A stretch of 64,000 bases of DNA, taken from NCBI RefSeq assembly GCF_057098645.1, contig NZ_CM169472.1; one strand, given 5' to 3'. A program made the position numbers and the translations under genes. Shown here in pieces: positions 31,583 to 33,952 of this stretch. Under the pieces are notes generated by a model. That model saw nothing but the letters and a program-made list of their open reading frames with translations, ran no database searches and was not told the DNA's origin. Numbering within the stretch: the stretch's first letter is position 1; each line of letters starts with the position of its first letter.

Positions 31583-32341
31583 TTAAGTTAAACTTCGGCG
31601 GTCAGAAACGATGGCAACCAGAGAAACCGCCTTCTGTGCCTGTTCCAGCACTTCGCTGTAGGGCGCTCTGGAATCAATCTCAAGAATTTTTGTGCCGTTA
31701 TAGCCAATCGTCGACATGACGCCGATTTTGTCCTGCAGCTCGGCATAGTCATGGTCAGGCTTGCGGGAGATGGCAGTCTCAATATCAATGCCCAGGCGAA
31801 TAATTAATTCCGGGCGATATTGCGCCATTTGTTGGTATAAACGCCGTTCGCGCTGCGCCAGAAACATGCTGATTTTCCCGGTCGCACGTTCGACGCCAAT
31901 CCCCGGTCCGTCATAATAAAAGCCCGAAATTTCAGCCTGCGGGAAGCGATCGCTGACCACCAGAACGCCACTTTGCGCCAGTCGCTGAACCTTGCGTAGA
32001 TTCGCCATTCTTCGCAGCGAGAAGCAGTACATAATCACCGCCGCCCATAGCGCCGGAGATTTGGTTTTCATGCTTTGGGTTTTCGAGGATTTGGCCGCCA
32101 GTCGCCGTTCCAGCCAGACGCCAACCAACGGCAATCGTTTGATTTTGTCGCCGTCTTCGCCGGAGAGCAGCCCCAGATAGCGCCGCTCGGTTTGCCAGTG
32201 TTGTTGCAGCGATTTCACCAGGTCGGTGGTCAGTGTGGATTTACCGGTGCCATCACACCCGACCACCGCAATCAGCCCCGGAATGTAGTTGGGCTGCGGC
32301 GCGGTTGTACTAATAACAGTTTGTGTTTGTAGTGCATCCAT
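31583..32341 (-). CDS. yghR: P-loop NTPase, kinase-like (YghR)
   Basis: 252 aa; Walker A GCDGTGKST, DRFP motif; paralogous to YghS and YghT. Confidence 0.85.
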   Translation of the reverse strand: MDALQTQTVISTTAPQPNYIPGLIAVVGCDGTGKSTLTTDLVKSLQQHWQTERRYLGLLSGEDGDKIKRLPLVGVWLERRLAAKSSKTQSMKTKSPALWAAVIMYCFSLRRMANLRKVQRLAQSGVLVVSDRFPQAEISGFYYDGPGIGVERATGKISMFLAQRERRLYQQMAQYRPELIIRLGIDIETAISRKPDHDYAELQDKIGVMSTIGYNGTKILEIDSRAPYSEVLEQAQKAVSLVAIVSDRRSLT

Positions 32342-32372
32342 TCGTTAAATCATCCCCTATCCATTTTGGTGA

Positions 32373-33086
32373 TCAAGAAAGCGCGGCGTGAATTGCGCGT
32401 AGTGACGCTTGCAGAATTTCATCGGCTGGTTGCCGACCATCCAGTTCAAGGATCTTTGCGCCATTGAATGTCAATTGCGGCGTAACGGCGATTTTTTCCT
32501 GTAACGCTGCCAGTTGGTGGTCAGGTTTACGCGCAAACGCGGTTTGTTCATCAATGCCAAGACGAATCAACAATACGGGCAAATAAGACGCCATCCATTG
32601 GTACAGCTTCAGCTCGCGCTGCCTTAACATTTTTATCCAACCGTTACCGCCCGTGGTTTTTGCCAATTGCGGGCCATCAAAGCGAAACCCCGGCACTTCA
32701 ACCTGCGGGTAGCGGTCGGTGATGAGCAGAAAGCCTTGCTGGCTTTTACACAACATTTTGCGAAACTTGTACGCCCGCCAGCAGGAAAGCAGATAGATAA
32801 CCAGAGCAGTAATATTGCCAGGCGGTGTTAAGGGCTTTTCGTGCACATGTGCCGCTTTACTTCGCAAATAACGCCCAAAAGGTGCGCCAATAACAGGGAG
32901 CTGTGAAATCCATTCGCCAATTCGCCCGGACGATTGCCCGAGATAAATGCGTTCTGTTGGCATTCTTGCTGCCAGTTCATTTACCAGGCTTGCCGTGAGG
33001 GTCGATTTACCTGAACCATCACATCCTACAATGGCAATAACACGCACTGGCGTGGAATTAATTATTGACATATTACGTTGATTCAC
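32373..33086 (-). CDS. yghS: P-loop NTPase, kinase-like (YghS)
   Basis: 237 aa; Walker A GCDGSGKST, DRYP motif. Confidence 0.85.
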   Translation of the reverse strand: MNQRNMSIINSTPVRVIAIVGCDGSGKSTLTASLVNELAARMPTERIYLGQSSGRIGEWISQLPVIGAPFGRYLRSKAAHVHEKPLTPPGNITALVIYLLSCWRAYKFRKMLCKSQQGFLLITDRYPQVEVPGFRFDGPQLAKTTGGNGWIKMLRQRELKLYQWMASYLPVLLIRLGIDEQTAFARKPDHQLAALQEKIAVTPQLTFNGAKILELDGRQPADEILQASLRAIHAALS

Positions 33087-33259
33087 GAAAAACCCGGCAG
33101 TAAATAATGTATTGAATATTACGTGGTCCGTGCTCAGAATATCCGTTCAACCTTATTGTGACAATGGTTAATTGTGACATTGACCTGAATTACGCTTTCA
33201 TAAAAACATATTAACCAAATAAATATTTTGGATGGATATTTAAATTTAAGGATATATTC

Positions 33260-33952
33260 ATGCAGTCAATAACACCTCCATTAATTGCCGTTATTGGTAG
33301 CGATGGTTCAGGCAAGTCAACGGTGTGCGAACATCTCATTACCGTTGTCGAAAAATATGGTGCTGCCGAAAGAGTTCATTTAGGAAAACAGGCCGGAAAT
33401 GTCGGTCGTGCAGTGACAAAATTACCGTTGATGGGAAAATCCTTACATAAAACAATTGAACGAAATCAGGTGAAAACAGCAAAAAAATTGCCAGGACCAG
33501 TTCCGGCGCTGGTAATTACAGCGTTTGTCGCCCGTCGCTTACTGCGCTTTCGTCATATGCTTGCCTGTCGTCGTCGCGGGTTAATTGTTCTAACCGACCG
33601 TTATCCTCAGGACCAAATTCCTGGCGCTTACGATGGTACGGTGTTCCCACCTAACGTTGAAGGTGGTCGTTTTGTCTCATGGCTGGCAAGCCAGGAACGT
33701 AAAGCGTTTCACTGGATGGCGAGCCATAAGCCTGATCTGGTCATCAAACTCAATGTTGACCTTGAAGTTGCCTGCATGCGTAAACCCGACCATAAACGGG
33801 AATCGCTGGCGAGGAAGATTGCCATAACGCCACAGTTAACCTTTGGTGGTGCACAACTGGTTGATATCGATGCCAATCAGCCACTGGAACAGGTGTTGGT
33901 TGATGCAGAAAAAGCGATTACGGATTTTATGACCGCGCGTGGTTATCACTAG
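33260..33952 (+). CDS. yghT: P-loop NTPase, kinase-like (YghT)
   Basis: 230 aa; Walker [14 protein letters not shown] motif; divergent from yghS. Confidence 0.85.

Follow-up and report, generated by a model that had tools for sequence, protein, structure and literature searches.

What do three kinase-like genes, lying side by side in Escherichia coli, contribute to a locus that makes a sphingolipid? The question is raised by yghR, yghS and yghT, which occupy positions 31583-33952 of the stretch of DNA analysed here (the window), 64,000 nucleotides of contig NZ_CM169472.1 from NCBI RefSeq assembly GCF_057098645.1. The window is a chromosome segment of an O145-type E. coli, spanning the glcC, yghO, pitB, gss and hyb region and 100% identical to several O145 genomes. 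The same three genes are present in the RefSeq annotation of an identical O145-type chromosome, with yghS and yghT named 'dTMP kinase' (deoxythymidine monophosphate kinase, dTMPK) and yghR 'hypothetical'.

Our best reading is that YghR, YghS and YghT, with a CHAD-like protein and the flippase YghQ encoded beside them, constitute the head-group module of the E. coli-type sphingolipid locus. The triad would phosphorylate the sphingolipid, as ceramide or ceramide phosphate, and so build its head group, a proposal to which we give a probability of roughly 0.45. Bacterial sphingolipid synthesis and export have been worked out recently, in Caulobacter, and most E. coli carry a complete locus. The analysis also corrects the widespread 'dTMP kinase' annotation, and it links the triad to the idea of thymidylate-kinase paralogues recruited for phosphate-chain chemistry, as in the polyphosphate kinase PPK3. 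The genes in question are as follows.

31583..32341, minus strand: yghR, open reading frame (ORF) for a predicted R-type phosphotransferase of the dTMP-kinase fold, 252 amino acids, with Walker A, DRFPQ and RKPDH kept; R orthogroup, n = 77
32373..33086, minus strand: yghS, ORF for a predicted S-type phosphotransferase of the same fold, 237 amino acids; first gene of the operon
33260..33952, plus strand: yghT, divergent ORF for a predicted T-type phosphotransferase of the same fold, 230 amino acids; T orthogroup, n = 69

Paralogy, motifs and fold of the three proteins

An earlier note on this DNA, made from the letters alone, had described three tandem, paralogous P-loop kinase-like genes, and ORFs are found at exactly the coordinates that it gave. 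Paralogy is established over the full length of the proteins by BLASTP, with 45% identity between YghR and YghS (E = 1.3e-63), 37% between YghS and YghT (E = 2.2e-54) and 34% between YghR and YghT (E = 2.5e-47). The Walker A and DR(F/Y)P motifs to which the note had drawn attention are invariant in all three paralogues, the latter extending to DR[FY]PQ. They belong to 55 invariant alignment columns, which include GxDGxGKST, DR[FY]PQ and RKPDH. The agreement goes well past anything that chance would give.

The fold is that of nucleoside monophosphate (NMP) kinases, the P-loop, the lid and the DRx motif all being present. When a profile of the family is compared with Tmk, 190 columns align (hhalign E = 1.9e-5, 19% identity), and bacterial thymidylate kinases (TMPKs) are the best solved relatives by sequence (E = 5.6e-5). 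On these alignments the relationship to thymidylate kinase is real but remote. Identity to E. coli Tmk is 18-28%, about 25 residues are inserted after strand 2, and the lid is shorter and carries RKPDH. Pfam and NCBIfam scans of the three proteins return nothing stronger than sub-threshold P-loop (AAA) and dTMPK matches: for TIGR00041, whose cut-off is 83.25 bits and which E. coli Tmk matches at 234.3, the scores are 32.0, 23.5 and 24.4 bits, and Pfam Thymidylate_kin reaches an independent E-value (i-E) of 0.045 or worse. The same scans give no match to the DAGK catalytic domain with its GGDG motif. A likeness to nucleoside-monophosphate or lipid kinases, the latter of the LpxK type, had also been proposed, an interpretation that is supported in part; the first part holds, and the second does not, LpxK being absent from the top 60 matches and specific similarity to it lacking. 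Anti-phage defence, screened with PADLOC, was rejected as an assignment, with matches at the level of Walker A only (E = 2e-4 or worse).

No membrane helix is predicted in any of the three. Strong basicity is shared by R, S and T, the median isoelectric point (pI) being 9.6-9.9 and the net charge +10 to +14; a polyanionic or membrane-surface substrate would fit this charge. Taken together, these features place the three proteins, apparently ATP-dependent phosphotransferases that are soluble and very basic, in an uncharacterised branch of the thymidylate kinase superfamily.

Three orthogroups and their arrangement

Relatives were scanned in one genome per species, which gave 249, and the best-scoring 80 loci, from gamma-, beta- and alphaproteobacteria and one Planctomycetota metagenome-assembled genome, were analysed. 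Together with the window they make up 81 loci. The 224 kinase-like ORFs of these loci fall into three clean groups, R (77), S (78) and T (69), with identity of about 59% inside groups vs 35-43% across them. Walker A, the DRx arginine and RKPDH are each at least 90% conserved in every group. Because the split is so clean and each group retains the motifs, R, S and T are apparently three old, separately maintained and active enzymes and not recent tandem copies; by the same comparison the triad is a non-redundant one. Exactly one member of each group is found in 61 of the 81 loci, and S and R alone in 11.

In 74 of 75 loci the gene immediately after S, on its own strand, is R, and the median distance between the two is 30 nt; T usually adjoins S upstream and is divergent (44 loci). 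Two Candidatus Nitrotoga genomes each encode a single in-frame S-R fusion protein of about 450-500 residues (L053 9866-11356 and L058 9824-11356), an unrelated database protein (P0241) is such a fusion too, and a T-R-like fusion also exists (P0242). The in-frame fusions and the S-R adjacency argue that S and R, at least, function in physical association.

The sphingolipid locus around the kinases

The earlier note had placed yghS and yghR at the head of a flippase/permease operon with yghT divergent, an arrangement confirmed by tight packing on the minus strand and by a 173-bp spacer. The order on that strand is yghS, yghR, yghQ, the ORF of a 274-amino-acid protein, a YtfJ-family gene, lptF2 and lptG2, the genes overlapping or lying no more than 45 nt apart. 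The other features of the locus are these.

33087..33259, unstranded: yghS-yghT divergent intergenic region, 173 bp, AT-rich in sequence, with the presumed promoters
30188..31537, minus strand: yghQ, MOP-family (Wzx-like) flippase of 449 amino acids; weak NCBIfam match to the MOP flippase family
29364..30188, minus strand: unannotated basic helical protein of 274 amino acids, with a CHAD-like predicted fold
28792..29355, minus strand: gene for a YtfJ-family periplasmic protein; TIGR01626, 212 bits vs a cut-off of 151
27691..28761, minus strand: lptF paralogue (LptF2); TIGR04407, 319 bits vs 230
26615..27694, minus strand: lptG paralogue (LptG2); TIGR04408, 309 bits vs 240; RefSeq coordinates
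26583..26617, unstranded: hairpin between the convergent spt and lptG2, a putative bidirectional terminator; 16-pair stem with 10 GC pairs
25408..26580, plus strand: spt, serine palmitoyltransferase; NF047599 equivalog, 600 bits vs a cut-off of 500
25160..25408, plus strand: acpR, specialised acyl carrier protein; RefSeq annotation
24214..25128, plus strand: cerR/epi, NAD-dependent reductase of the ceramide pathway; RefSeq, SDR-type matches, gene assignment from PMC9386255
22529..24217, plus strand: aasR, fatty acyl-AMP ligase / acyl-ACP synthetase; NF006624, 872 bits vs 600; RefSeq start
20983..22125, minus strand: yghO (bCerS/aca, ceramide synthase), a pseudogene here; RefSeq 'internal stop' flag, with the stop visible in the translation; aca in PMC9386255

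Spt, AcpR, AasR, CerR and bCerS are thus all clustered in the window, as in a sphingolipid (ceramide) locus. The orthologues of Spt, AcpR and AasR in BL21(DE3) have been shown experimentally to make 3-oxo-sphinganine; the Spt orthologue ECD_02854 was assayed, the AcpR orthologue ECD_02853 was characterised, and ECD_02850-54 were assigned to the ceramide genes (PMC9386255). The locus is depicted as a sphingolipid locus in that study and in a later preprint (PMC9386255, bioRxiv 10.64898/2026.04.12.717747). The minus-strand series ends at the hairpin 26583-26617, where the convergent aasR-cerR-acpR-spt genes stop too, and the hairpin looks like a bidirectional terminator for both operons. yghO is the only broken gene, the remainder of the locus being intact in this O145-type strain; because of its internal stop, the pathway may be blocked at N-acylation here and perhaps inactive.

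Synteny with the sphingolipid genes is established well beyond E. coli. With neighbour families defined by BLAST clustering of raw ORFs, YghQ is found in 60 of the 80 loci, the 274-residue protein in 57, Spt in 55, CerR in 51, AasR in 46, LptF2/G2 and the YtfJ-like protein in 39 each and YghO in 29. In the 52 loci whose 10-kb flanks are complete, the co-occurrence with an SPT-like gene that the earlier note had proposed to check is seen in 44 (85%), and YghQ reaches 83% and the 274-residue protein 85%. At least one gene of the sphingolipid cluster is present in 51 of these 52, Nitrotoga being the sole exception. The yghRST region is matched in 5082 of 5426 complete E. coli genomes and the block from aasR to the 274-residue gene in 4240, and the complete locus is carried by about 4,100-4,200 of the 5,426. 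K-12 MG1655 (L082, NC_000913.3 3130146-3131340) has IS5 (insH9) in place of aasR through the 274-residue gene, and its yghQ is cut by IS5 to 355 residues, the 3' part being gone. Because IS5 removed the biosynthetic genes, the 'orphan' yghRST of K-12 is a deletion remnant and no evidence against a link to lipid.

Outside E. coli, enzymes of lipid-phosphate metabolism join the module, with at least one of a PAP2 phosphatase, an LmtA-like protein or a DgkA paralogue in 40 of the 80 loci. PAP2 phosphatases related to LpxE, PgpB and LpxF occur in 17 + 8 loci, frequently beside T, and a relative of the lipid A 1-phosphate O-methyltransferase LmtA in 11. A DgkA paralogue (Pfam DAGK_prokar, 4.9e-32) lies directly beside yghO in 20 loci (e.g. 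L020 2004-2363, L011, L016), many of them from Enterobacterales and none from E. coli. The first phosphate could be provided by this paralogue, a candidate kinase for ceramide. An OlsC/LpxO-like acyl 2-hydroxylase is found in 18 loci and an LptA-like protein in six. Examples of such lipid A-type remodelling genes outside E. coli are L043 11500-12258, L054 7562-8125, L059 8849-9592 and L050 1515-2198.

Two further neighbours may be recorded here. In three Lysobacterales loci (L063, L067 12676-13560 and L070) the S-R pair precedes a tartronate-semialdehyde-reductase-like gene, whose product would form glycerate, reminiscent of the head group of Caulobacter sphingolipids, phosphoglycerate. yghT is abutted by pitB, a phosphate transporter gene (window 34001-35500, minus strand); since this adjacency is restricted to Escherichia, Pseudocitrobacter, Hafnia and Citrobacter loci, we treat it as probably coincidental, suggestive though it is of a phosphate-rich product.

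The CHAD-like partner

CHAD domains are polyphosphate-binding modules (PMC6537752), and the 274-residue protein resembles them at the level of its predicted fold. In the model (predicted local distance difference test score, pLDDT, 93.3) there are 11 helices, and they form two four-helix bundles; the protein has a basic pI, and His, Arg and Lys residues are conserved, some of them in an HxxRK motif. Sequence-level support is weak. The protein has no Pfam or NCBIfam match, PF05235 being missed even at E up to 10; the domain is faint in a distant homologue, P0197 (i-E 0.19 and 0.34), and there are only hints in a single UniRef name, 'CHAD', and in the PF05235 flag precomputed for two homologues. 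An hhalign comparison of the protein's profile with YgiF failed, and Foldseek gave a non-significant result in which CHAD was highest in probability. We accordingly call the protein CHAD-like on the strength of the structural model.

Distant relatives and a link to flippases

A profile search of 1.84 billion representatives found 1388 relatives at E 1e-10 or better, many of them of about 500 residues with an N-terminal domain of about 260 residues that has no Pfam match. Fusion partners among the kinase relatives include a MOP flippase (in P0333 and P0380) and a GT4 glycosyltransferase (in P0359), and P0286 (L084 5721-12048) lies between a Wzx-type flippase and GT4/Wzy genes. A 249-residue gene downstream of P0286 was considered as a Ygh relative and rejected, its similarity to the Ygh profile being at P-loop level only. 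Because distant relatives are fused to flippases or lie beside them in polysaccharide clusters, the pairing of kinase and flippase is older and broader than the sphingolipid locus.

Composition and expression

The guanine and cytosine (GC) content falls to 0.44 over yghT and the divergent promoter region (window 32500-34000), and at third codon positions it is 0.41 in yghT vs 0.60 in yghR. In K-12, overexpression of SlyA raises yghS 3.1-fold, and yghS also appears on H-NS lists. The low GC at yghT and the promoters, the response to SlyA and the H-NS listing together suggest that the operon is normally silenced. The K-12 spacer between yghS and yghT contains an FlhDC site from systematic evolution of ligands by exponential enrichment (SELEX). 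One promoter-like site lies in the spacer of the window, at 33164-33136 on the minus strand, a frequency that gives no above-chance signal.

Proposed role of the triad and alternative explanations

Besides the triad, the E. coli locus encodes ceramide enzymes, transporters, the CHAD-like protein and the YtfJ-family protein. Elimination leaves the three kinases as sole head-group candidates, because no other potential head-group enzyme is encoded there and the cpgA-D set of Caulobacter is absent. A pathway can be proposed on this basis, in which the sphingolipid acceptor and the order of the steps are what we infer. Ceramide would be made by YghO, AasR, AcpR, Spt and CerR. The kinases would then convert it at the cytoplasmic face into an anionic phospho-lipid, S and R working as a physical pair and T providing a third activity; the first phosphate could come from one of the three, from DgkA, or, in other genomes, from the DgkA paralogue. 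YghQ would flip the product, and LptF2/LptG2 with LptB would extract it for the outer membrane.

The most specific version of this model, held with lower confidence than sphingolipid phosphorylation in general, would have the ceramide phosphate lengthened stepwise to a di- or oligophosphate while the CHAD-like protein holds the phosphate chain. It is the most specific because Tmk chemistry is directed at phosphate acceptors and the partner protein has a polyphosphate-binding fold: thymidylate kinases move a phosphate onto a phosphate acceptor, and the DRx arginine clamps donor and acceptor phosphates. This version also fits YghQ, since MOP flippases normally handle diphosphate-linked lipids. 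If the phosphate-chain reading is true, the product would be a new anionic outer-membrane lipid, relevant to resistance to polymyxin and detergents and to host recognition. Carried to its end, the argument predicts a ceramide-anchored oligo- or polyphosphate lipid in E. coli and many Proteobacteria, made by a PPK3-like heteromer of S/R and T with a CHAD-like holder, flipped by the MOP protein and taken to the outer membrane by LptF2/LptG2. Bacterial surface lipids would thereby gain a new class, and polyphosphate a way to the cell surface; in this full form we regard the prediction as distinctly improbable.

Several points weigh against phosphorylation of the sphingolipid by the triad. The literature searched assigns no function to yghRST, which is mentioned in screen lists and regulon tables, and it does not describe the sphingolipid end product of E. 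coli. The earlier note had counted conservation of yghRST in many genomes without the biosynthetic operon, together with an unrelated demonstrated substrate, as contrary evidence; K-12 is accounted for by IS5, and there remain 8 of the 52 full-flank loci in which Spt is absent within 10 kb. The fused S-R gene of Nitrotoga L053 lies among housekeeping genes (ilv, ECF sigma, guaA) with no lipid genes near, and polyphosphate genes, too, were sought around it and only housekeeping genes found. The YghS model is of moderate quality (pLDDT 77) and weakest in the presumed acceptor-binding segments, residues 50-90 and 130-148. With three kinases, alternatives to three sequential phosphorylations are possible, and, with distant relatives in polysaccharide clusters, the ancestral substrate need not be a sphingolipid.

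Four other explanations share parts of this evidence. The likeness to PPK3 would also accommodate a kinase, formed by S/R with or without T, that makes or consumes free inorganic polyphosphate, bound by the CHAD-like protein and related to the lipid only indirectly, as a phosphate or energy donor for the pathway or through delivery to the envelope. We think this unlikely, as it leaves the close linkage to Spt, the flippase and LptF2/G2 unexplained, and PPX, SixA, Pst and PhoE genes are absent from the recurrent neighbour families of the 80 loci, with NUDIX genes in only three. The DRx arginine, lost in the regulatory subunit of PPK3, is present in all three paralogues; canonical TMPKs are a better sequence match than ST1543, which falls outside the 60 best matches in the PDB; and E. 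coli already possesses PPK1 and PPX. Rather unlikely, too, is phosphorylation of a soluble head-group precursor (a nucleotide, a sugar phosphate or something like glycerate or phosphoglycerate) that an enzyme encoded elsewhere joins to ceramide. It agrees with a fold of nucleotide and small-molecule kinases, with the relatives beside or fused to GT4 in polysaccharide clusters and with the reductase-like gene of the three Lysobacterales loci, and Caulobacter does use activated phosphoglycerate. The E. coli-type locus, however, has no attaching transferase, the additional neighbours elsewhere (PAP2, LmtA-like, DgkA) act on lipid phosphates, and the strong basic charge and the CHAD-like partner would go unexplained.

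P-loop proteins that share an operon with a flippase and two ABC-type permeases could, on the other hand, be energy-coupling ATPase subunits of YghQ or LptF2/LptG2 and not kinases at all, the more so as kinase-flippase fusions are known and the sphingolipid locus has no LptB copy of its own. This is very unlikely: ABC models match no more than a stretch of about 25 residues at Walker A and score 11-18 bits vs cut-offs above 200, so that ABC ATPase was rejected as an assignment, and the fold, with its lid and DRx motifs, is that of NMP kinases. MOP flippases, moreover, are secondary transporters, LptF2/G2 of Caulobacter are served by the housekeeping LptB, and the kinases occur without LptF2/G2 in 41 of the 80 loci. 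Least credible is the function that the RefSeq names of yghS and yghT imply, that of extra dTMP kinases. The GxDGxGKST P-loop as well as the DRx motif is indeed of the TMPK type, but TIGR00041 scores and identity to Tmk are low, the insertion and the shorter lid set the proteins apart, synteny is with lipid genes and not with DNA metabolism, and Sulfolobus paralogues with a similar annotation are without dTMPK activity (PMC12995831). A sphingolipid-phosphorylating triad thus remains our preferred reading.

Comparison with known systems

The same slot in the Caulobacter locus is filled by CpgA-D, sphingolipid-locus enzymes that turn ceramide into an anionic phospholipid, with LptF2/G2 for export. 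CpgB is a ceramide kinase of the DAGK type with a GGDG motif and no P-loop (PMC10331486, PMC11324152), and Caulobacter LptF2/G2 are implicated in sphingolipid export, binding the housekeeping LptB (bioRxiv 10.64898/2026.04.12.717747). E. coli-type loci are without cpgA-D and have the Ygh triad and the CHAD-like protein instead, which would make these a non-homologous alternative module. LpxK, the lipid A 4'-kinase, is, like the Ygh proteins, of the P-loop type; its lipid substrate is phosphorylated at the inner membrane's cytoplasmic face and flipped afterwards.

Compared with Tmk (TIGR00041/PF02223), which represents the nearest family, the Ygh proteins lie far below the family threshold, have the insertion after beta2, the short RKPDH lid and a pI near 10, and stand in a genomic context unrelated to nucleotide metabolism. 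The 274-residue protein shares helical bundles, HxxRK and a basic pI with CHAD domains (PF05235; RcCHAD 6qv5, CtCHAD 3e0s, PptA 6rn5, YgiF), and its gene is likewise positioned beside dTMPK-like kinases; it differs in having no Pfam match in E. coli, in standing alone and in belonging to a lipid locus rather than a polyphosphate operon. No publication in the literature searched joins thymidylate kinase (dTMPK-like proteins) or CHAD with bacterial sphingolipid genes or loci.

The closest parallel is PPK3 of Sulfolobus acidocaldarius (Saci_2019/Saci_2020), a heteromeric polyphosphate kinase whose two dTMPK paralogues share their operon with the gene of a CHAD protein (PMC12995831). Both systems have adjacent dTMP-kinase-fold paralogues, once annotated as thymidylate kinases, with the canonical Tmk encoded elsewhere; the operon partner is a CHAD protein in PPK3 and a candidate one in the Ygh case. 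PPK3 is a heteromer that transfers phosphoryl groups onto a phosphate chain; in the Ygh case the S-R order and the fusions argue for adjacent paralogues acting together, by an interaction that is presumably physical, and an oligophosphate product is what we infer. Unlike PPK3, Ygh comprises three orthogroups and not two, all with the DRx arginine and hence with no obvious regulatory pseudo-subunit, and the module lies away from PPX and SixA, inside a locus for the synthesis and export of a sphingolipid, MOP flippase included. PPK3 and the Tmk family were already known; what is new here is the apparent exaptation of the dTMPK superfamily in a lipid-linked, three-subunit context.

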